A stretch of DNA of 64,000 nucleotides, taken from assembly GCA_035480955.1 (NCBI GenBank), contig DATIHF010000006.1:11110-75109 (forward strand). The letters are read 5' to 3'. Below, piece after piece: positions 2,785-45,473 of this stretch. The first letter of the stretch is position 1. Every line of letters starts with the position of its first letter. The DNA is from Candidatus Saccharimonadales bacterium (lineage in GTDB: Bacteria; Patescibacteriota; Microgenomatia; Woykebacterales; RBG-16-39-9b). The position numbers and the translations under genes are program-made. The notes under the pieces are model-generated. The model had not been told where the DNA came from. It ran no database searches and saw nothing but the letters and a program-made list of their open reading frames with translations.

Positions 2785-3408
2785 ATGATGGATCCCTGGG
2801 AAGAAACCTGGGTTAACCATTACGCTGAACTTGGTGTTCCAATGTTCAGTGACGTAAAAGTTTGCAAAAAAGCTTATCGTAAGCAGGCGATGAAATATCA
2901 TACTGACGCGGGTTCTGAGCCAAACAACGCTCGGATGGTAAAACTGAATGCAGCCTTTGAGGTTTTGATCAAAAACCAGGCCAACAAGACACGCTACGAC
3001 CAATATTCCCGTGAAAATAAAATGAGAACAACCTCTGGAACAGGGGCTTCAGCTGGCAGTCCTGGTCCAAGCGGTACCAGAAGAACTCCACCAAGTTCGC
3101 CTAAACCCCCACCGGCATCACCTAAGGTATACAACCCGGTTATTCGAGTTGAGCACCTAGGGTCAAGATTGAAGACTACAACCGAAGGTGAGGCGATAGT
3201 TGAGAAGTTTGTCGTCCACCACGTCAGTGGAGAATTGCCTCCAAATCCACAGCTAGATATTGAGATTGAGGGAATTTTTGAAGAAGCTTTCAGTATCGAT
3301 CAATACCCCAAAAACCGCTTTCCGACGACTGTCGTCGTCAATATCACTCCCCAGTCGACTGGAAGCTATGTCGGCGCGATAAGCTTCCAGATCCTTGACC
3401 CAGCCTAA
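2785..3408 (+). CDS. J-domain protein (DnaJ-like N-terminal domain, HTD variant of HPD) with P/S-rich linker and unknown C-terminal domain
   Basis: YAELGVP..SDVKVCKKAYRKQAMKYHTDAG....LNAAFEVL....RYDQY matches J-domain helices II/III. AAGGAG RBS 5 nt before the ATG. Confidence 0.7.
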   Translation: MMDPWEETWVNHYAELGVPMFSDVKVCKKAYRKQAMKYHTDAGSEPNNARMVKLNAAFEVLIKNQANKTRYDQYSRENKMRTTSGTGASAGSPGPSGTRRTPPSSPKPPPASPKVYNPVIRVEHLGSRLKTTTEGEAIVEKFVVHHVSGELPPNPQLDIEIEGIFEEAFSIDQYPKNRFPTTVVVNITPQSTGSYVGAISFQILDPA

Positions 3409-26148: not shown

Positions 26149-27312
26149 ATGGAAACTATCATTTGTCCCCACTGCAAAAAAGAAGTCGAGCTCTCCAAAG
26201 CTCTCTTTCACGAAGTTGAAGAAAAAATTTCCCACGATCTGAAGGCAAATCAATCCAAAGAGATGGAGAAAATTCAAAAGGAAACTGAAGAGCGGGTCCG
26301 CTCTGAAGTAGAGAAAAGAACCGAGTTTCAACTAAAAAACCAAAGTAAAGAAACTGAAGAACTCAAAACCAAAAACGACAAACTTTACGCTGATCTACTG
26401 GAAATGAATAAAAATATCCGCGAGCTGAAAGAAGCAGAAAAGGACGCCAAACTCGAGCAAGAAAAAAGATTAAACGAACAACTGGAAAAGTTTTCCCAAG
26501 ATTTTGAACAAAAATCCAAGTTAGAGAAAATGGAGCTGGAAAAGAAATTAACCGACACCCAGAAAGCTCTGGAAGAAGCCCAAAGAAAAACCAAGCAGGG
26601 GAGTCAACAGCTCCAAGGTGAGGTGCTCGAACTCGACCTCGAAACTCAACTCCTGCAGGCTTTTCCTGATGATTTAGTCAAAGATGTTCCGAAAGGCATC
26701 CGCGGCGCCGACGTGGTGCAGTTTGTTCGCAACAAACAGGGCCGAGAGGCGGGTTCAATCATCTGGGAGGCCAAAAGAGCCAAGTGGAATCAAAACTGGC
26801 TCTCCAAATTAAAGGATGATATGCGCAGTGCTGGTTCCTCCGAAGCAGTGCTAGTCGTCGAGGATTTGCCGGACAAAGTAAAAAATTCTGGTCTGGTCAA
26901 TGGGGTTTGGGTGACTTCTTATCGAGATTTTTTGACGGTTGCCTCAACGCTGCGACTTTTGTTGATGAAGGTTGCTGCTGCCAAATCCGCGGCCGAGAAC
27001 AAAGACGAGCGGCTTGAGGATCTTTATCAATACATCACTTCAGACGGTTTTCGACACCGTCTCGAATCCCAAATTGAGAGTTTTATCGCTATGAAAACCG
27101 ATTTGGAAACTGAGAAAAGAGCGATGGAGCGGCTCTGGGCAAAAAGAGAAGTCCAGCTTTCCCGACTAGAGAAAAACACCAGCAATATTTTTGGGGAGCT
27201 GCAGGGGATCGCGGGAGAAAGTCTGGGAACCATCAAGTCCCTGCAGGGCCCAGAGGATTATTCGGAAGAAACCCAGGAAGAGCTTTTCACCGAGACACTC
27301 GCAGAGCATTGA
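26149..27312 (+). CDS. DUF2130-family protein (N-terminal CPHC zinc ribbon, long coiled coil, C-terminal RmuC/PD-(D/E)xK-like domain)
   Basis: METIICPHCKK start is typical of DUF2130. E/K-rich coiled coil. GADVVQFV...GSIIWEAKRAK nuclease-like core. Confidence 0.75.
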   Translation: METIICPHCKKEVELSKALFHEVEEKISHDLKANQSKEMEKIQKETEERVRSEVEKRTEFQLKNQSKETEELKTKNDKLYADLLEMNKNIRELKEAEKDAKLEQEKRLNEQLEKFSQDFEQKSKLEKMELEKKLTDTQKALEEAQRKTKQGSQQLQGEVLELDLETQLLQAFPDDLVKDVPKGIRGADVVQFVRNKQGREAGSIIWEAKRAKWNQNWLSKLKDDMRSAGSSEAVLVVEDLPDKVKNSGLVNGVWVTSYRDFLTVASTLRLLLMKVAAAKSAAENKDERLEDLYQYITSDGFRHRLESQIESFIAMKTDLETEKRAMERLWAKREVQLSRLEKNTSNIFGELQGIAGESLGTIKSLQGPEDYSEETQEELFTETLAEH

Positions 27313-31289: not shown

Positions 31290-31652
31290 ATGCAGCCTGC
31301 CATCTCAATCAGCTCATACCTGATTAGCTTGCCTTTGGAATTTCTCAACTGGTGGTTCGTCGAGGCAACTTTCAACCTTTTCAAAATTCTCCGTTTCGTC
31401 CTAGCTGCCGCCCTTCGTTTGTTGGGAGTCGAGTTGCTTTTGAAAACTTTTTTCAAACCCTGGAAAAATGAATACCGAGAAGGGTTGACCCGCTTTGCCC
31501 TTTTCATGGGTATGGGGATCAAAACTTTTATTTTATTTTTTGATTTTTTGTTTTTCTCAGCTTTGATTTTTCTGGAAGGGCTCATTTTAGTAGCTTGGCT
31601 TGCTTTTCCACTGCTTGTAATCTGGGGGGTCTATGCTGCAATTTTCACCTAG
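31290..31652 (+). CDS. small polytopic membrane protein (overlaps the start of the Clp-type ATPase gene by 20 nt)
   Basis: Hydrophobic 120-aa ORF. The antisense ORF 31283..31585 is Lys-rich as expected for the reverse of Phe/Leu codons. Confidence 0.5.
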   Translation: MQPAISISSYLISLPLEFLNWWFVEATFNLFKILRFVLAAALRLLGVELLLKTFFKPWKNEYREGLTRFALFMGMGIKTFILFFDFLFFSALIFLEGLILVAWLAFPLLVIWGVYAAIFT

Positions 31653-34089
31653 TACCAGCAGAGTTTGGCAAGCCGCGACCTTTTGCCTCATCTACAGCTC
31701 ACTTTTGGGGATAATCATCAGACTCTCGGCTTTCATACTTTTGCTGACGACTATCTTGTTACTTCTCACCAATGGCACCAAATTTTTCCCGCCGCTGCTT
31801 TTTTCTCTTTTGTCACTTCTGATTATGTTTGAATTTTTCTATCGTTTTAAAGTCAGCCGCGAAAAGCCCCGCTTCAGCGTCGAAGAAATAAAAGAAACTA
31901 CCAATTTAGCTGATTTAGTTACGCTCCCGCTGGCCAAACTGCTTCTTTCTCACCCTGCTTGGAGCGAAACAAAAAGTCTCATGAATGCGCTGAGTTTTTC
32001 GGAAAGTGTCAAATTTGTCCTTTACCGGTCAGGAATCTCACGGGACAACTTGGGAGCTCTTTTTGCCAACGGGGAAGAGATAAACTTGAACGGCGCGCTG
32101 CAGACTGCGGCAGATATTTCCGCGAAAGAAGGTTGGGTCTACATCGATGAGCTCTCACTGGTCTCAGCTTTGTTCAGCAAATCTGCTCTCCTACAGAAGC
32201 TCCTTTTTGACCGAAACCTCAAGCAAAATGACCTAGACAATATCCTACACTGGGCCCGGGAAGCGCAAAAAGTTTATCTCGAAGATCGACCTTTTTGGGA
32301 ACTTTCGACTTCCTCCTTGGGACTAGGACTAGCGGAGGTTTGGATGGGTGGTTGGACTCTGGAGACTGAAAAATACACCAAGGATATCAACACCGAAGTA
32401 CTCAAAAGAAGTGAGGAATATTTTTTGGTCGGTCGGGGCAAAGAAGTCTCCCAACTTGAACAAGTACTTCTGCGAACCAGCAAGAGAAATGCGATTTTGC
32501 TGGGTGAGCCGGGTCTGGGAAAAACGACAATTGTTTATTCTCTCGCGAGAAAATCCGTGATTGGGGAGCTTCCGGTCGAGCTCTCTTACAAACGCTTCAT
32601 GGAGCTGGATCTCACCTCAATCAATGCTTCAGCGAACGAGGGAGAGATCGAGCAGAGACTCAAAAATATTTTGGTTGAGGTTTCCCATGCTGGGGACGTC
32701 GTGCTTTTTGTTCCCAACATTGAGAACCTCGCTGGCGCGCTTGAAGGCGGAAAGTTTGATATCTCAGGACTGCTTTCTCAGACTTTGAAAGATATTAACT
32801 TGCAAGTCATTGGAACTTCCACACGAGCAGCCTTCCATAAATACATCGAGGACAAAGCAGTTTTTGCCGATTCCTTCGAGGTCATTGACGTGACCGAGCC
32901 AAATACAGACGAGGCGATCAGAATATTGGAAGAAGCAACTCATCTGATTGAAAGTAAAACTGGTGTGAAGATTACTTACAAAGCGATTCTGAAAGCAGTT
33001 GAGCTCTCGGAACGCTACCTAATTGACAAAGTTTTGCCAGGTAAAGCGATCAACCTGGTCGATGAGGCAGCGGCCAATATCGCTCTTTCCGGGAAAAAAT
33101 TGCTGGAAGAGTCCGACATTGAACATATAATTTCTGATAAAGCGAAGGTCCCGGCTGGACTTGCTACTGGAGAAGAGAAAGATAAATTACTCCAGCTTGA
33201 AAAAGTCCTCCACCAGAGAATCGTCTCCCAAGATGAGGCCATCTCGGCTATCTCTCAAGCTGTCAGGCGGGCGAGAACTCTCAAACGAGACAGCAAAAAA
33301 CCAATCGGAGTTTTCCTTTTTCTGGGACCAACTGGAGTGGGAAAGACCGAGACTGCCAAAGCTCTCGCGGAGGTTTACTACGGATCAGAAGAGCGGATCT
33401 TGCGCTTTGACATGAGTGAATTTAACCAGGAAAACAGTGTTTATCGACTCATCGGCTCTCCTCCTGGCTCATCAGAATTTAAAGAAGGCGGCCAGCTCAC
33501 TGAAGCAGTCCGGGTCAATCCTTTTAGTTTGATCCTATTGGATGAGCTGGAAAAAGCCCACAGCAAAGTTTTGGAAATTTTCTTGGCAATTTTCGATGAG
33601 GGAAGGATCACTGACTCTTCAGGACGACCAATTTCTTTTACCAATACAATAATAATTGGAACGTCCAATGCGGGAGCAGAGTATATCCGCGAGCAAATCA
33701 ACAGCGGTAACCCAGCAGATCTGAAAAAATCTTTAATTGAGAAGCTTTTGACTGAAAATACTTTTCGTCCTGAGTTTATCAACCGTTTTGATGATGTGAT
33801 CGTCTATCGACCACTGGATCAGATCGAAGTCACCAAAGTAGTCGAAATGCTTTTGAACAATCTAGCTCGCCGCTTAGAGAAACAAGATTTAACAGTGAAA
33901 TTCACTCCAGCTCTTGTAACCTTTCTAGCCAAAATAGGCTACGATCCACAGTTTGGCGCTCGACCACTCCAGCGAGCGATCCAGGATCAAGTTGAAGCAA
34001 AAATTTCCCAGGCAATACTAGAGGGCAAACTCGCTCGGGGAGCCAAAACCACTGTTACAGCAGCCAACGACCAAGTCACTTTAAGTTAA
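31633..34089 (+). CDS. Clp/Hsp100-family double-AAA+ ATPase with N-terminal transmembrane anchor
   Basis: AAA-1 LLGEPGLGKTTIV. AAA-2 FLGPTGVGKTETAKALA, LLDELEKAH and RPEFINRFDDVIVYRPL. About 60 N-terminal residues form two TM helices, followed by a Clp_N-like repeat. Confidence 0.85.
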   Translation: MLQFSPSTSRVWQAATFCLIYSSLLGIIIRLSAFILLLTTILLLLTNGTKFFPPLLFSLLSLLIMFEFFYRFKVSREKPRFSVEEIKETTNLADLVTLPLAKLLLSHPAWSETKSLMNALSFSESVKFVLYRSGISRDNLGALFANGEEINLNGALQTAADISAKEGWVYIDELSLVSALFSKSALLQKLLFDRNLKQNDLDNILHWAREAQKVYLEDRPFWELSTSSLGLGLAEVWMGGWTLETEKYTKDINTEVLKRSEEYFLVGRGKEVSQLEQVLLRTSKRNAILLGEPGLGKTTIVYSLARKSVIGELPVELSYKRFMELDLTSINASANEGEIEQRLKNILVEVSHAGDVVLFVPNIENLAGALEGGKFDISGLLSQTLKDINLQVIGTSTRAAFHKYIEDKAVFADSFEVIDVTEPNTDEAIRILEEATHLIESKTGVKITYKAILKAVELSERYLIDKVLPGKAINLVDEAAANIALSGKKLLEESDIEHIISDKAKVPAGLATGEEKDKLLQLEKVLHQRIVSQDEAISAISQAVRRARTLKRDSKKPIGVFLFLGPTGVGKTETAKALAEVYYGSEERILRFDMSEFNQENSVYRLIGSPPGSSEFKEGGQLTEAVRVNPFSLILLDELEKAHSKVLEIFLAIFDEGRITDSSGRPISFTNTIIIGTSNAGAEYIREQINSGNPADLKKSLIEKLLTENTFRPEFINRFDDVIVYRPLDQIEVTKVVEMLLNNLARRLEKQDLTVKFTPALVTFLAKIGYDPQFGARPLQRAIQDQVEAKISQAILEGKLARGAKTTVTAANDQVTLS

Positions 34090-34158: not shown

Positions 34159-34479
34159 ATGCACTGGTTCTTAACCAAAACTGTTAAGGCACTCGTGCTT
34201 GCCATACTGACAGCTGTAAGTTGTGGTTTACTTGTGTCGCTCTTCATACTATTGACCTCAACAGAAAGCTGGAACCAAATGAAAACTCTGGTGGTGGTAG
34301 TCTCCTTTTTCTTGTTCGTGGGCATTTTCACAGTGTTGATGATTGATTTAAGTGAAAACCCTACAGCAGAATTGTATGAACCAGTAAAACCGATTAAGAA
34401 AAAGGCAGACGCAGACGTTTTGATTGAAGATGTCCTAGACTTTCTTAACGAGAATAATCCCACATTAAAGAAGAAATAA
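34159..34479 (+). CDS. small 3-TM membrane protein
   Basis: AAGGAGGGAG RBS. Hydrophobic 106 aa. Confidence 0.5.
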   Translation: MHWFLTKTVKALVLAILTAVSCGLLVSLFILLTSTESWNQMKTLVVVVSFFLFVGIFTVLMIDLSENPTAELYEPVKPIKKKADADVLIEDVLDFLNENNPTLKKK

Positions 34480-34513
34480 GATGATCAAATGTGAAGTCGG
34501 AGAGTTACCACGC

Positions 34514-34549
34514 TGAGCCGTTAACTGAAGAAAGTTGCGGCTCTTTTTT
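34514..34549 (+). terminator. intrinsic terminator
   Basis: GAGCCG-17-nt loop-CGGCUC followed by UUUUUUU. Confidence 0.5.
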
Positions 34550-34602
34550 TATTTTTTACTCCTTTTGTTATAATAGCCACGATCAATCCTGAAGGAGGCG
34601 TG

Positions 34603-34899
34603 ATGAAGGCGATCAGCGAAGGCAGAGCGATTCTTTTCGAAAGCTACTGTCGAGAAGAAGGAAAGATCATCGGTCGACAGATCTTTGCTCAGAAAACCAC
34701 TCTCGATGGCTACCGTATCGTAGTTGTTGGAGACTCAATCTATTACGCTTCAGCACTTAACAAGAGGGATTTAAGAAAGCTCTTGACGACTGACTTGGGT
34801 GCAAATGAACAAATCGTCTGCTTCCTACAAAGAAGAGAAAATTTCATTGTCGGGTTTGAAAAACGTGTCATAAATCAAATCGTCGAAAGAGCAGTGTAA
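34603..34899 (+). CDS. hypothetical small protein
   Basis: TATAAT about 25 nt upstream and GAAGGAGG RBS. 98 aa. Confidence 0.45.
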   Translation: MKAISEGRAILFESYCREEGKIIGRQIFAQKTTLDGYRIVVVGDSIYYASALNKRDLRKLLTTDLGANEQIVCFLQRRENFIVGFEKRVINQIVERAV

Positions 34900-34962
34900 G
34901 GAACAATCCAGAAAAGAAGCGGTGAGCAAAGAGAAAGTTTTTCTGAGACCAAGGCAGTACTG

Positions 34963-35208
34963 ATGCACCACTTCGGAATCAACTCTCAAGTTAGAGCGGC
35001 CAGGATTGTGGAAGAGCGTAGTGAAAACACATTCGTACTAGCTCAACCACAGACTTACAACTGCGAAGTGGGCAACTATGATGTTGCTAAACTAATTGAT
35101 AGTAGAGAACCAGAGCAGTGGCTCATCTGTACGATTTTCGATGGGGCAGTAATACAGATCAAAAGGGAGTCGAGAGGAAAGATCATCAAAGCAACAGACC
35201 AAGTTTAA
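34963..35208 (+). CDS. hypothetical small protein
   Basis: 81-aa ORF. Confidence 0.35.
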   Translation: MHHFGINSQVRAARIVEERSENTFVLAQPQTYNCEVGNYDVAKLIDSREPEQWLICTIFDGAVIQIKRESRGKIIKATDQV

Positions 35209-35301
35209 CCACTTGGTCTTTTTTTTAACCCATAGCATTGAATAGTATTTAAAATTCTGTTAAAATAATCTTGAAATCAAGCGCATTTCAAGGAGGAGAG
35301 C

Positions 35302-35655
35302 GTGAACACTCCCGAGGCAGTTCGCACTTTGTCAAAGATTGCTGAACATCTTGTGATGGACGCCAGAGGAACAGAGTTAAAGTACGAGACAGGCGATTTC
35401 CAACGTATTCTTCAATACAGCGTTCACACTGACGTTGTTCTTGTGGAAGACTGGACCTCCCATTCCCACAGAATAGGAAGATACAGATGGGAAGGGTTCA
35501 AGGGTTTCGAGCCAGAAGATGGAAATGCAGTTGTTCTCATCTTTGAACACGGTGGCTGGCAAACTCGAGTGAGACTTGGACGTATTAATGGTCCAGAGGT
35601 GAGTGTCTATCATATAGCACCTACTCTGATAGCTCATGAGGGCACCGTCTCCTGA
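35302..35655 (+). CDS. hypothetical small protein
   Basis: CAAGGAGGAG RBS before the GTG start. Confidence 0.45.
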   Translation: MNTPEAVRTLSKIAEHLVMDARGTELKYETGDFQRILQYSVHTDVVLVEDWTSHSHRIGRYRWEGFKGFEPEDGNAVVLIFEHGGWQTRVRLGRINGPEVSVYHIAPTLIAHEGTVS

Positions 35656-35672
35656 GGAAGGGGAGAAAGTGA

Positions 35673-35750
35673 ATGGATTCCAACCGTATCGGAACATTGG
35701 TGTTCATCACGATCATCATCGTCATAGTGATAGCGTACCAAACGAGATGA
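35673..35750 (+). CDS. 25-aa single-TM peptide (MDSNRIGTLVFITIIIVIVIAYQTR)
   Basis: GGGGAGAAAG RBS 6 nt upstream. Entirely hydrophobic core. Confidence 0.3.
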   Translation: MDSNRIGTLVFITIIIVIVIAYQTR

Positions 35751-35772
35751 TGGTCACTGGAGGTCTAAGCCC

Positions 35773-35859
35773 ATGAGAAAGATCAACTGGGACGTGGTCG
35801 GGCTCTTACTTGGTCTCGTCTCTTTGGTCGCGATCATCGTGGTCAGCAATATCCTGTAG
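35773..35859 (+). CDS. 28-aa single-TM peptide (MRKINWDVVGLLLGLVSLVAIIVVSNIL)
   Basis: GGAGG RBS. Directly follows the previous peptide. Confidence 0.3.
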   Translation: MRKINWDVVGLLLGLVSLVAIIVVSNIL

Positions 35860-35867
35860 GAGGGGCC

Positions 35868-36011
35868 ATGATCAACAAGGTCTTCGCTTTCTTGCAAGCA
35901 ATGAAGAAAAGGATGGATAGAGAGAACGAAGAGCACTTCCCAGGGTTCATCGCGATCGCCGCAGTGTTACTCGCGATTTTTCTCGCGACAACCTACAACA
36001 CCTTCGGCTAG
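35868..36011 (+). CDS. 47-aa single-TM peptide (MINKVFAFLQAMKKRMDRENEEHFPGFIAIAAVLLAIFLATTYNTFG)
   Basis: AGGAGGGG RBS. Terminator 36039-36074 follows. Confidence 0.3.
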   Translation: MINKVFAFLQAMKKRMDRENEEHFPGFIAIAAVLLAIFLATTYNTFG

Positions 36012-36038
36012 ACAATAAATCAGCAATGGACAAACCAT

Positions 36039-36074
36039 GACTCCCTCGCAACCGCTTGGGAGTCTTTCTTTTTC
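36039..36074 (+). terminator. intrinsic terminator
   Basis: GACUCCC...GGGAGUC followed by UUUCUUUUU. Confidence 0.6.
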
Positions 36075-36118
36075 CGAACATTGACCAAAAGTTCTACAAG
36101 TACTAAGATAGGCTTTCT

Positions 36119-37462
36119 ATGGGGATGAAACTGACCAGCAAAGCTCGCGCAAAAAAACTCTTTACTCCACTGACTGCCAATGGTCAAAAACCATTAGCTG
36201 AAAGAATCCGTCCAACTAACCTTGAGGGCTTTGTCGGTCAAGAGCATTTGGTCGGGCAGGGGAAACTGATCTCCACTTTACTCCGACAAGACAAAATCCC
36301 TTCTCTAATTTTCTGGGGGCCACCAGGCTCGGGTAAAACAACTCTCGCGAAAATCATCGCCCACGAAACCAAATCTTTTTTTGAATTCCACTCTGCAGTC
36401 GAGGTCGGCGTCAACGACATCAAAATAGTTATTAACGAATCTAAGGAGAGGCTTGAACTTACTCAGCAAAGGACGATTCTTTGCATTGACGAGATCCATC
36501 GCTGGAACAAATCCCAACAAGCGATCCTGCTGCCTTTTGTCGAAGACGGAACAATCATTCTTATCGGCGCAACCACCGAAAATCCTTCTTTTGAAGTCAT
36601 CGGCCCACTGCTTTCTCGCAGCAAAGTTGTCATTCTCGAAAGATTGGAAGAAGCAGACATCAAGAAACTAGTTCAACACGCCCTGCGCGATAAAACTCAT
36701 GGGTTGGGCAATTCAAAAGCAAAACTGGAACCAGAGGCCATGCAACTTTTGTTGGACGCCTCGAACGGGGATGCGAGGACGACCCTCAACGCTCTGGAAA
36801 TTGCTGTTAATCTCACTTCGCAACGAAACGGCGAGAGGAAAGTTACGGTTGAGAAAATCGAGCAAGCTTTGGGCAGTAAAAAACTGCTTTACGATAAAAC
36901 TGGAGAAGAACACTACAATGTCATCTCGGCTTTCATCAAAAGTTTGCGCGGCTCTGACCCTGACGCGGCGGTCTATTATCTGGCGAGAATGCTGGAGGCA
37001 GGAGAAGATCCAGAATTTATCGCGCGAAGAATGATAATTTTAGCCAGCGAAGACGTCGGCAACGCTGACCCCAAAGCTCTGCAGGTTGCGGTTGCGACCG
37101 CCCAAGCCCTACAATTTGTCGGTTTACCAGAAGCGGCCATTAATCTCGCTCAAGCGGCAACTTATCTAGCCACCACACCGAAAAGCAACGCTAGCTACAT
37201 GTCACTGCGCTTTGCACAATCAGACGTCAGAGCCACTCTCAACGAACCAGTGCCGCTGCATCTACGCAACGCAGTCACTGATCTGATGAAAGATGTGGGC
37301 TACGGAAAAGGTTATAAATATGCTCATGATTATGAAGGTGGGGTAGTGGAGCAGCAATTTCTTCCCGACAGCCTCAAAAATAAAAAGTACTACCATCCCA
37401 AAAAAATTGGGTATGAGAAATATATCAAAGAACATCTCGAAAAAATCAATTCCAATAATTAG
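36119..37462 (+). CDS. rarA: replication-associated recombination protein A (RarA/MgsA AAA+ ATPase)
   Basis: [29 protein letters not shown] and C-terminal MgsA helical domain. Confidence 0.9.
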
Positions 37463-42738: not shown

Positions 42739-43143
42739 TTATCTATCTTTCAGTCTAAAAACAAATTTAAGAGCTGACCAGTCCTCATCAATGGCAGCAA
42801 CTTTCACATCAACTAATGAATTTTCCAAACCGATAGTCCGAACAATATTCTCGTTCAAATCTTTAGGGATTTTTGAAGAACCTTTTGGCCAGCCGACCCA
42901 TAAGTTTCCGTTTTTAGCCAAATGGGATTTTAATTTTGGAAAAGTCTCGTGCAGCTCAGCTTTTTCTGTAACAAAAGAAATAATAAAATCTAAATTCGAT
43001 TCAGGCTTTTCAAAAATTTTAAAAGTGATAGGAGAGTCTGCAATTTCTTTTTCAAAAGAAAGAGGGGAATTGTCAAAATAGACTCTGCTGCCCTCTTTCA
43101 AACCCAACTTTTCAACTAAAGACTTACCAGAATAGCCTGCCAT
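42739..43143 (-). CDS. DUF3052 family protein
   Basis: N-terminal MAGYSGKSLVEKLGLKEGSRVY is characteristic of DUF3052. Confidence 0.65.
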   Translation of the reverse strand: MAGYSGKSLVEKLGLKEGSRVYFDNSPLSFEKEIADSPITFKIFEKPESNLDFIISFVTEKAELHETFPKLKSHLAKNGNLWVGWPKGSSKIPKDLNENIVRTIGLENSLVDVKVAAIDEDWSALKFVFRLKDR

Positions 43144-43934
43144 AGCCGTATTATCACACTATAATCTTTATTTTTCAAGGCTAAAAGCGCGTCTTTTGCT
43201 TGATAGATCAGTCTAATTTATCAATTATAGGGTAAAAATGGACCCCTCAGGGGGAGGAGGCGAAAGGGGTAAAACCCTTGAATGTACTGATACAGCAGCC
43301 AATATGAGCAATTTGAGTGCGATAAATAAATTTAAGAATTTAGGACAGAGAAAAAACAGGGAATTTTGAATACGATTTTGAAAGCTAAAAAGTTTTCAGT
43401 TAGCGCAGTAGGAAAGTGAGAGGAAAATTTCAAAACAGCTCTCGGTGGGGAGCTTAACTCCACGTCGCATAAGATACATTGTGCGACGTAATAGCAAATA
43501 GCCTTTAGGAGCTCTTTCTAATGAAGAGAAGGGGCGCACAGATATCACAGATTAATTGGAAATTAATTTGTTTTTTATTTTCACTTCATCCTCTGTGCAC
43601 TTCCTACATTACTTAAGATCTAAAAACGCCTCCTAGGCCCTTTTAAGGGCTTGCTACTATTAGCCTTGGAAATACCTTTAGTCGGACTCTTGGGTAGACA
43701 CTCATCGGAGAGAGTCAAATTTGCTTGTTATTTAGGTTTAAATTGATAGTTTTCTAGCTATAAATTATGACATCTCAGGCATGCAATTAGCACTCGTTTT
43801 ATAGCTCTGCAAAGTTATCCACAAAAGATACCTCAGTCTAATGTAAGAAGGGCGCATTAAAAAACTAAAGGAGGGTCGCACTACACTAGAGAAGAGTGGG
43901 GCGAAAGTTTTGTTTGGCTCCAGCTCGTCCAAAG

Positions 43935-43957
43935 CCGAAAGGTCTTTCGGGTTTTTT
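43935..43957 (+). terminator. intrinsic terminator inside the ORF-free region
   Basis: CCGAAA-GGUC-UUUCGG followed by GUUUUUUG. Confidence 0.5.
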
Positions 43958-44229
43958 GCGATCGGACTTCTTCATCTAGACCCTATAGTATTACTTTCCA
44001 CACGTGGAAACAACTATATCATACTATATCATCATGTCTTATAGTATTGTTGTACCTTTTCTCCTTTTTACCCCCACTACTCCTCCACTCTGACAGAGCG
44101 TCGCAAAAATTTTTTCCTCTTCTTTCAAATAAAAATTAATTGTCAGTAAATAGATCCGCTGATCAAGCTTTCAAGTACTGCAATTAAAAAAAGCTAGTCT
44201 CTTAAAACCCTCACCCCCTCCCTGTTATC

Positions 44230-44268
44230 AAAAAAAATGGGCCCCGGGAAAACAAGTTTCTCGGGGCC
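44230..44268 (-). terminator. intrinsic terminator for the minus-strand transcript
   Basis: GGCCCCG...CGGGGCC hairpin with an A8 run on the plus strand, giving a U-tract on the minus strand. Confidence 0.6.
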
Positions 44269-44296
44269 GACAGGCTATTCAATTGTAAGACTCTGG

Positions 44297-44658
44297 TCTA
44301 AAACCCCGCTAGCGAAGCTTAGGTTTTAGAGTCCAGGGCCTGAAGTTCACTGTCGAGACCGCGGCATTCTTCGGCCAGATGTCGCTGCTCTTCTGGATTC
44401 TGAGCAGACTGGCCGAGTACATTACCGCTCAACGATACAGCGATTCCTCGTCTACCAACAGAGGGTTCGTCATCCCTCCATGGTGTTTTTGGCGGAGGCG
44501 GGGGTGGCTCCCCGGGTCCACGCGTCTGCCAATAACGAGGTCTATAATCCATCGTCCATATCCTCACGGGGAACTCGCCCAAACCCAGGGGCGGATCTAT
44601 CGGTTCCTTCCTCTGTAAATCCCTCAATTGGGTTCTTTCCCCCTCCCTTCTAAAACCC
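44297..44658. repeat. 10-nt direct repeats TCTAAAACCC (44297-44306 and 44649-44658) bracketing a GC-rich 350-bp segment, plus the complementary GGTTTTAGA at 44322-44330
   Basis: Exact 10-mer duplication. The central element can pair with either copy. Confidence 0.5.
44319..44627 (-). CDS. GC-rich Pro-rich hypothetical ORF (doubtful)
   Basis: TTG start. GPGEPPPPPPKTPW low complexity. Overlapping ORF on the opposite strand. Composition atypical for this genome. Confidence 0.25.
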   Translation of the reverse strand: MRDLQRKEPIDPPLGLGEFPVRIWTMDYRPRYWQTRGPGEPPPPPPKTPWRDDEPSVGRRGIAVSLSGNVLGQSAQNPEEQRHLAEECRGLDSELQALDSKT

Positions 44659-44699
44659 GAAGGATCTGAAAAGGATTTTAGTACTTTGAAAAAGGGGTG

Positions 44700-45473
44700 T
44701 CAAATGCCCCAGGTTGTGGTGACAATAAGAAGAAGAAATACACTAAACGCAACAAAAACATACTCAAAGGTCGCTCGGCGGGTCAGATCCTTATCAAGCA
44801 TATGATGCATGATGCCCAGCACAACATAAACCATCGCGGTCATTGCCAGCCCAATCTTTGGTGGGTCAAGTGGCCAAAAAGACAAGGCCGCGGACAGCTG
44901 AGCAACAATCAACCCGGCGACTAAACTGTAGAGTATTAATTCTCGACTCAAAGTTTCTTCAAGCTCGACTTGCCACAATGCTTGAGCAAAAAGCAAAGAA
45001 CCGAACCCAAAACTTATCAAAGTTAGCGCCCACCACGGCAGTCCTAATCCATAAATCAAAGAAAAGAAAGCAAAGGAAACAAATAAAGTCACGAGATAGC
45101 CCACTGTCCGAGCTGCTCGCAAAAGTGGGATGTTTCGCTCCGCGGAGACATTAAAAATATTTTCTGCCAGCAAATTGGTATAAAGAACAACTCCGTAAAC
45201 CACACAGAGAAGAAGTCTGATCTCAGTCGAAGGGTTGAATTGATTGATAAAAAGGGCAAAACTCAGTGTTAGAAAAGTGGGCAAAACAAATAAAGTGATG
45301 AATTCAAAACCTTTCAGGTCTTTGAAAATCGACCAGACCGAAAGCAGATAGCTGGCCACGACTAACCCAGCAAGTAAATAGAGTTTGATATTAGCCTCAG
45401 CGAGTGGAAAAAAGAAAAGTCCTCCGGAGAGAACGATCGTTACGATTGTGATCTTTACGCGCTTGGTCAGCAT
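44700..45473 (-). CDS. polytopic membrane protein, unknown function
   Basis: About 8 predicted TM helices, downstream of ruvC. Confidence 0.55.
   Translation of the reverse strand: MLTKRVKITIVTIVLSGGLFFFPLAEANIKLYLLAGLVVASYLLSVWSIFKDLKGFEFITLFVLPTFLTLSFALFINQFNPSTEIRLLLCVVYGVVLYTNLLAENIFNVSAERNIPLLRAARTVGYLVTLFVSFAFFSLIYGLGLPWWALTLISFGFGSLLFAQALWQVELEETLSRELILYSLVAGLIVAQLSAALSFWPLDPPKIGLAMTAMVYVVLGIMHHMLDKDLTRRATFEYVFVAFSVFLLLIVTTTWGI

Follow-up and report, generated by a model that had tools for sequence, protein, structure and literature searches.

Species-specific islet of small genes, including three putative membrane micro-proteins, between a Clp ATPase gene and rarA in an uncultured Saccharimonadales bacterium

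The 64,000-nucleotide (nt) stretch of contig DATIHF010000006.1 analysed here (hereafter the window) comes from an uncultured soil bacterium of the Saccharimonadales, which belong to the Patescibacteria, or candidate phyla radiation (CPR). Between the genes coding for a Clp/ClpB-type ATPase and for RarA it contains an islet of about 1.5 kb with six small open reading frames (ORFs), all on the + strand. The segment 34549–36068 is a species-specific accessory islet lodged in a hypervariable slot. On balance, the reading that accounts best for its content is that of two self-contained transcription units, the first coding for two soluble orphan proteins (p98 and p81) and the second for a cytoplasmic protein (p117) followed by three hydrophobic micro-proteins of 25, 28, and 47 amino acids (m25, m28, and m47). 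An earlier note on this DNA, made from the letters alone, had described six small ORFs between the two conserved genes, and upon re-reading the ORFs of the window all of them were found at the same coordinates. The three micro-ORFs were also as described there, each with a GGAG-type Shine-Dalgarno (SD) motif, an ATG, and one hydrophobic helix, and with a terminator after the set.

Relatives of the locus were retrieved by a search with RarA of a set of 5.8 billion proteins, which gave identities of 95, 85, 84, 83, 82, 79, and 78%. In the closest relative (locus L084) the order S30AE–p245–p120–Clp (818 amino acids)–two-transmembrane gene–…–rarA–p157 is kept, with 95% identity for RarA, 80% for Clp, and 83% for p157, the flanks being 64–95% identical at the protein and 71–80% at the DNA level. 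DNA homology ends after a gene of the p106 type and its terminator, and resumes at about 36069 with the rarA promoter TTTCCGAACATTGACC. The gene of p106, a seventh small gene placed between Clp and the islet, is part of the conserved flank: its TATAAT promoter, which follows the Clp stop codon, is common to L084, its counterpart there is a protein of 129 amino acids with two transmembrane (TM) helices at the same position, and the terminator stem GAGCCG..CGGCTC is also common to both. Because promoter, two-TM gene, and terminator stem are shared, the variable segment is 34549–36068, which is exactly the islet of the earlier note. In its place L084 carries a single gene coding for an ASCH-domain protein, and the proposal of an accessory insertion between conserved genes is thus borne out, as close relatives with collinear flanks do not have the islet. 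The right junction is common to five relatives, L084 and four more, and none of the islet products has a tblastn match in the locus of any relative.

The synteny comparison that had been suggested as a check also revealed that the slot itself is variable, relatives having Clp–rarA intervals of anything between 1 and 9 kb. The interval spans 7.8 kb with 14 small genes in L085 and 9.3 kb with 18 in L091, coding for ASCH, tRNA_bind, PCC, NUDIX, His_Phos, HAD, and CopC domains and for many proteins lacking domains. The presence of 14–18 other small genes in the same interval identifies the slot as a hotspot of gene turnover. A further 80 loci found via RarA in GTDB were uninformative, since the best RarA was 62% identical and there was no common context. 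The islet DNA (locus tags VLE47_00450–00460) is found in four assemblies in all.

The islet shows none of the usual signs of horizontal origin that were looked for, as there is no tRNA, no flanking direct repeat, and no integrase or transposase domain, and its composition is ordinary. The slight elevation in GC reported by the earlier note did not survive comparison with 1.5-kb windows taken across the stretch (0.451 for the islet, against a mean of 0.436 ± 0.023); the islet stands at the 70th percentile, which is not significant, and GC content was dropped as a sign of foreign origin. A repeat search of the islet flanks for direct or inverted repeats that might be integration scars likewise found none. 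Conserved flanks, sharp junctions, small relative-specific genes, and promoters and terminators of their own are features that the islet has in common with flexible genomic islands and with islands of orphan immunity genes. It differs from these by the lack of mobility genes, repeats, and compositional signal, and in that the slots of the relatives hold mostly small housekeeping-like domains (ASCH, tRNA_bind, PCC, NUDIX, SET), not recognised immunity families.

Genes of the islet are also orphans by sequence. The claim that they lack recognisable domains extends to all six products, for which there is no match in Pfam, PHROGs, PADLOC, or NCBIfam; Rfam gave nothing, and p106 matches no family either. 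Among the 5.8 billion proteins, p98 and p117 match only themselves, and p81 (VLE47_00460), p98 (VLE47_00455, annotated as hypothetical protein), p106, and m47 form singleton clusters. There is no entry for m25 or m28 in a collection of 15 billion proteins. No paralogy was found among the seven small proteins or between them and the rest of the window. The possibility that p98 and p81 are a toxin-antitoxin pair found no family match for either protein.

The three micro-ORFs are very probably genuine genes, to judge from several properties of the sequence. The entire 64 kb was filtered on both strands for ORFs of 20–65 amino acids having a GGAG- or GAGG-type SD and a hydrophobic 15-mer, and five ORFs passed, namely m25, m28, and m47, adjacent on one strand, and two that lie antisense within long genes; with the identical filter merely three or four ORFs pass in about 90 kb of the relatives' loci. 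Dinucleotide shuffling of the 397-nt stretch never yielded as many as three SD-led ORFs with a length of 25 amino acids or more (0/5000), and it yielded even one ORF with both SD and TM helix in just 2 of 5000 shuffles. When codon log-odds are computed with the long genes of the window as training set, m25, m28, and m47 score 0.19, 0.30, and 0.23, respectively; true genes score 0.22 ± 0.12, and ORFs of equal size that are spurious, either out of frame or antisense, −0.11 ± 0.18, with just 1.5–5% of the latter reaching the scores of the three. Each micro-ORF contains a hydrophobic stretch of 17–21 residues, with maximum 15-residue Kyte-Doolittle means of 3.26 (m25), 3.0 (m28), and 2.89 (m47). 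All three have the size, hydrophobic helix, and translation signals of small single-pass membrane proteins (at most 50 amino acids and about 17–23 hydrophobic residues). The gaps before m25, m28, and m47 are of 17, 22, and 8 nt and bear the SDs, so that ORFs and gaps together occupy the DNA from the p117 stop codon to just before the terminator T3; the stop codon of m28 overlaps the SD of m47 (TAGGAGG).

The SD motif by itself is little proof, since GGAGG is not depleted in the window (81 occurrences against about 84 expected). Strong SDs are in the minority in this genome. An SD-like motif precedes about 20 of the 59 long ORFs and GGAGG precedes 6 of the 59, rarA having none, as compared with GGAGG before five of the seven small ORFs (p106, p98, p117, m28, and m47) and GGGGAG before m25. 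Within the islet p98 and p117 have AAGGAGG, m28 and m47 have GGAGG, and m25 has GGGGAG, the distance to the start codon being 4–9 nt. Core and accessory genes thus appear to differ in their translation-initiation signals, nearly all the accessory genes of the islet having AAGGAGG.

In the annotations m25 and m28 are missing altogether, and m47 was picked up by a single pipeline other than PGAP. These omissions, together with the lack of any homologue and of sequence variation in which selection could be seen, are what one would expect if the micro-ORFs were untranslated, being either chance ORFs in a long 3′ untranslated region (UTR) of p117 or the pieces of a broken gene that formerly coded for several TM helices; that m25 and m47 lie in one reading frame fits the same explanation. 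It is nevertheless unlikely, because no shuffle reproduces three SD-led ORFs, the codon scores of all three exceed those of 95–98% of spurious ORFs, and the stretch from the p117 stop to T3 is taken up by ORFs and SD-bearing gaps. A recent pseudogene is not expected to provide each of its pieces with an SD of its own at proper spacing and an ATG. The C-terminus of p117 (EG.VS followed by the stop) is conserved in its homologues (see following), which argues against the micro-ORFs being a read-through extension of p117. We therefore regard it as likely that m25, m28, and m47 are real, translated, accessory membrane micro-proteins. As a minor observation, the TM-coding parts of m25 (35707–35724) and m28 (35828–35845) are identical, with codons in register, at 15 of 18 nt (ITIIIV and VAIIVV), which could be a local duplication or chance and is too short to interpret.

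The protein p117 is the only one of the islet with detectable relatives. An exhaustive phmmer search of 1.84 billion representatives gave two homologues, P0123 (39% identity) and P0124 (37%), both of exactly 117 amino acids, in similar variable neighbourhoods of other Saccharimonadales: tRNA_bind–PCC–ASCH–SET–p117-like in one case and ASCH–p117-like–DUF5680 in the other. Some 80 nt of the DNA upstream are common to the three genes, with C[CT]ATAGC, a −35 element, TGnTAAAAT, and AAGGAGG, and all three have a non-ATG start (GTG at 35302 of the window, GTG at 1882 of L093, TTG at 514 of L094) behind the strong AAGGAGG. In the window the core of this promoter, TTGAAT-17-TAAAAT, is at 35238–35266. 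No other copy of CYATAGC with its −10 block was found in the window or in loci L084–L098, and this association of the promoter block with p117 genes alone indicates that the p117 gene takes its regulatory region along with it. The three loci differ downstream of the gene: a terminator follows directly in L094/L095, an SD-led basic ORF of 60 amino acids and then a terminator in L093, and three TM peptides in the window. As p117 homologues occur without them, the peptides are a genome-specific addition and not obligate partners of p117.

The ORF that follows the homologue in L093 (2260–2442) is highly basic and precedes, after its terminator, a TATAAT promoter, behind which there is an ORF coding for a single-TM protein of 56 amino acids (2587–2757, MALIKQRDPWYGPDSPPEGKLFGFAVIASVAFMIGFLRWAWGNEEDQVTPTNAHYW). 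Companions of this kind, small and either basic or TM, seem to be common in these variable regions. Some further leads on p117 were rejected. A metagenome scan with the p117 alignment gave a sole match, L096, which is a short RYRWEGFKG coincidence inside unrelated DNA. A hairpin upstream of the p117 SD, in the 5′ UTR, appeared conserved with a compensatory change between the window and L093, and folds no better than shuffles (z about 0). Lastly, T3 can be aligned with the terminators that lie downstream of the two p117 homologues, which had suggested a conserved cassette terminator, yet similar hairpins with a T-run follow many unrelated genes in relatives, and the resemblance is thus typical of the lineage and no evidence of homology. 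Near-identical hairpins ACTCCC...GGGAGT followed by TTTCTTTT are present at 36040–36063 of the window, at 3009, 6465, and 7550 of L090, at 5580 of L093, at 1069 of L095, and at 467 of L098, where they stand behind many unrelated small genes of the variable regions; the hairpin is perhaps a terminator typical of the lineage, or else an element that the cassettes carry with them as they spread.

Structure prediction gives a lead on p117. The AlphaFold2 model from the single sequence is unusable (predicted local distance difference test, pLDDT, 44), and the model from the three-sequence alignment has a pLDDT of 81.7 and a predicted template modelling score (pTM) of 0.72, with one N-terminal helix and nine β strands. 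The predicted fold matches that of an immunity protein, the CdiI of Klebsiella pneumoniae 342 (PDB 6CP9), at 7–9% sequence identity. This CdiI, listed in a review as an α helix followed by nine β strands, neutralises a tRNase CdiA-CT of the BECR fold (PMC9086364). A profile of the p117 alignment run against all PDB sequences does not match 6CP9 at E ≤ 10, and p117 has no profile, Pfam, or NCBIfam match that would place it in a CdiI family. Nor does it lie directly downstream of a cognate toxin gene: no toxin domain was detected, the upstream neighbour p81 is parted from p117 by a terminator and a promoter, and the corresponding neighbours of the homologues are ASCH or SET genes. In contrast with the CdiI locus, there is no cdiA, cdiB, or toxin gene nearby, and the host is a Patescibacterium, not a Proteobacterium bearing contact-dependent inhibition (CDI) systems. 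With neither sequence similarity nor an adjacent toxin gene, the term immunity-type is for p117 a lead and not a family membership, and p117 would represent a tiny undescribed family of Patescibacteria with an immunity-protein-like fold. The immunity function that the earlier note had listed among its candidates finds indirect footing in the p117 model, and none for the peptides.

The positions of all features are given in Table 1. The earlier note had credited the small genes with a promoter, ribosome-binding sites (RBSs), and terminators of their own, which is right as to the promoters, the three terminators, and most of the SDs, and overstated for p81, whose RBS is merely a weak AAGG.

Table 1. 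Features of the Clp–rarA interval, in window coordinates
Feature	Position	Strand	Remarks
Clp/ClpB-type ATPase, 818 amino acids (aa)	31633–34089	+	Followed by p106
p106, 106 aa, two TM helices and acidic tail	34159–34479	+	Left flank, outside the variable segment
Terminator T1, left boundary	34515–34550	+	Hairpin and T-run, z −2.1; stem kept in L084
Extended −10 promoter TGTTATAAT of unit 1 (putative)	34566–34574	+	From reading the sequence; poor −35, hence unlisted by a simple promoter scan
p98, soluble orphan of 98 aa, net charge +4	34603–34899	+	SD GAAGGAGG; codon score 0.16
p81, soluble orphan of 81 aa	34963–35208	+	Weak AAGG RBS
Terminator T2, end of unit 1	35196–35227	+	Strong; 9-bp stem and T8; −12.1 kcal/mol, z −5.3; overlaps the p81 stop codon
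Promoter of unit 2	35228–35266	+	CCCATAGC, then TTGAAT, 17 nt, TGnTAAAAT; from promoter scan; specific to the p117 family
p117, 117 aa, GTG start, cytoplasmic	35302–35655	+	CdiI(Kp342)-like α + 9 β fold (model)
m25, MDSNRIGTLVFITIIIVIVIAYQTR, single TM, unannotated	35673–35750	+	SD GGGGAG 7–8 nt 5′ of the ATG; hydrophobicity 3.26; codon score 0.19
m28, MRKINWDVVGLLLGLVSLVAIIVVSNIL, single TM, GxxxG motif, unannotated	35773–35859	+	SD GGAGG 9 nt upstream; hydrophobicity 3.0; codon score 0.30
m47, charged N-terminal helix, then one TM helix	35868–36011	+	SD GGAGG 4 nt from the ATG; codon score 0.23
Terminator T3, end of unit 2, right boundary	36039–36073	+	Strong; −19.2 kcal/mol, z −3.7; then UUUCUUUUU
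rarA promoter and gene, conserved right flank	36081–37462 (gene-order listing 36119–37462)	+	Promoter scan; Pfam MgsA_C, AAA_assoc_2, RuvB_N

According to the proposed model, unit 1 would be transcribed from its extended −10 promoter through p98 and p81 to T2, and unit 2 from the p117-family promoter through p117, m25, m28, and m47 to T3, each of the micro-proteins being initiated separately. The peptides would be translated and inserted into the cytoplasmic membrane, m28 and m47 probably with the N-terminus inside according to the positive-inside rule. They are probably made constitutively and not toxic to the cell itself, because the extended −10 promoter is near consensus and the SDs are strong and exposed. 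They might act through helix–helix contacts, to which the GxxxG motif of m28 points, either with each other or with a target in the membrane. Since the closest relative does without them, they are not subunits of an essential conserved complex and are best seen as accessory. A protective role of the immunity type, or a modulatory one, beside p117, rather than one in killing or lysis, is the function we favour, though as a tentative and doubtful suggestion.

Several observations weigh against this model. The hydrophobic stretch of m25 has just 17 residues, and its topology is ambiguous. The micro-ORFs have no homologue in any relative, and the islet is 100% identical in all four assemblies that carry it, so that comparative evidence for them is lacking and selection on them is not measurable. 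As regards p117, the fold match depends on a model built from three sequences, with no sequence similarity to CdiI and no toxin gene adjacent, and its homologues in L094/L095 and L093 exist without the peptides.

The class of proteins that m25, m28, and m47 most resemble is that of the small single-pass membrane proteins brought to light in bacteria by surveys of small ORFs, such as AcrZ, KdpF, MgtS, and YohP of Escherichia coli. These have, like the islet peptides, 20–50 residues, one TM helix, and an SD, are missed by annotation, and are often co-transcribed with a larger gene. The islet peptides differ from them in being unrelated in sequence, arranged as three in tandem, and strain-specific, and in having no adjacent gene for a partner transporter or sensor.

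Size and hydrophobicity also match those of membrane-damaging toxins, and the earlier note had proposed type-I-toxin-like peptides among its candidates. Unit 2 would then be a toxin-antidote or addiction module in which an antisense RNA or p117 restrains toxic peptides of type I or of another small class. Indeed, m25 and m28 are similar in length and extreme hydrophobicity to the Ibs, TisB, Fst, and Hok peptides, the locus is accessory and strain-specific, and the p117 encoded upstream has an immunity-like predicted fold. This explanation is improbable all the same. No toxin family (Hok, Ldr, TisB, Ibs, Fst, or similar) is matched at E ≤ 1 in Pfam or NCBIfam, a simple consensus scan finds no minus-strand promoter across 35656–36080, and there is no Rfam small RNA. 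Type I toxins are typically under tight translational repression, of which three tandem peptides with a near-consensus promoter and strong, exposed SDs in an operon are the opposite. Unlike the known toxins, the islet peptides are three unrelated ones in a row behind a protein gene, without family match or antisense RNA signal. Besides, p117 is cytoplasmic and β-rich, which makes it an unlikely antidote to a membrane peptide.

A more elaborate scenario has the p117 gene as a portable, self-promoted cassette of the immunity type, in which the stretch between stop codon and terminator is a slot that hosts or gives birth to micro-proteins; m25, m28, and m47 would then be genes of very recent origin, perhaps born de novo, which an epibiotic CPR bacterium has enlisted as membrane partners for its defence against toxins. 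That the stretch is empty in one lineage, codes for a basic protein of 60 amino acids in another, and for three TM peptides here would be in line with it, and we nevertheless consider it a long shot.

Back-to-back peptide genes with their own RBSs and no leader are also the arrangement of aureocin A70, garvicin KS, and the phenol-soluble modulins (PSM) α, and bacteriocins were also among the candidates of the earlier note. The peptides would in this case be exported leaderless multi-peptide bacteriocins or phenol-soluble modulins, with p117 as immunity protein of the producer, which suits the tandem genes of 25–47 amino acids, the accessory locus, and the immunity-like fold next door. The operons of aureocin A70, garvicin KS, and PSM-α code for cationic amphipathic peptides together with export and immunity functions. 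In contrast, the islet peptides have a net charge of +1 each and an uninterrupted hydrophobic stretch of 17–21 residues, i.e. they are near-neutral TM helices, and there is no ABC transporter or export gene in the islet or its flanks and no match to a bacteriocin family. Such a function is hence very unlikely. The least probable explanation is that of a prophage or mobile-element remnant coding for holin-like, lysis, or superinfection-exclusion proteins, phage remnants and holin-like peptides having been among the earlier candidates. The small size and orphan character of the genes, their own promoters, the variable slot, and a very weak PHROG match of m25 (E = 0.014) would suit it, but nothing in PHROGs falls below E = 0.01, neither the 50,697 phage records nor the 72,556 plasmid records contain a DNA match, p117 has no relative in IMG/VR viral contigs and no convincing fold match in the viral structure library BFVD, and the islet has neither lysis nor mobility genes (no integrase), neither tRNA nor flanking direct repeats, and a genome-typical GC.

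The reading as an accessory islet of two units does not overturn current understanding and is no surprise for a CPR genome, as variable slots commonly contain small orphan genes; the peptides would belong to a familiar class of SD-led single-TM micro-proteins overlooked by annotation, and the islet would be a typical flexible slot. If real, the peptides add to a large unannotated micro-proteome of CPR bacteria. The latter have tiny genomes, in which strain-specific genes are the first to be considered for a part in interactions with hosts or competitors. Two further elements would be p117 as a previously undescribed family and the Clp–rarA interval as a defined hotspot in which gene turnover can be tracked.

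Other features of the window deserve mention. The Clp/ClpB-type AAA+ ATPase is extended at the N-terminus by a hydrophobic region of about 90 residues in which several TM helices are predicted, and the start of its gene overlaps by 20 nt the preceding gene, which codes for a membrane protein of 120 amino acids. The length of 818 amino acids is kept in L084, L085, and L091, and a membrane-anchored Clp ATPase is unusual.

The window is about 81% coding apart from 43143–44700, where 1.5 kb are without convincing ORF. This region has collinear blocks that are 72–84% identical to ORF-free gaps of L085 and L090/L092, a conservation at least equal to that of the neighbouring genes. It includes invariant motifs, among them CTTTCCACACGTGGAAA (43994–44010), and one perfect DnaA box (43815–43823); Rfam finds nothing in it, and there is no cluster of DnaA boxes. 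Within it, ACGTCGCATAA-GATACA-TTGTGCGACGT (43462–43489) is a near-perfect 11-6-11 palindrome, invariant in three genomes, which shares CGCATAA-N6-TT.TG with the dif site of E. coli. Long ORFs converge on the palindrome, most of those to its left being encoded on the + strand and nearly all of those to its right on the − strand. Its sequence and this convergence make the palindrome a candidate dif site or replication terminus; the GC skew shows no clear switch.

Finally, GCA_964508465.1 is identical to the window except for six differences, all of which fall within 110 nt (27141–27249), where the 3′ ends of the DUF2130 and P-type ATPase genes overlap; the cluster is due either to local strain variation or to an artefact of assembly.

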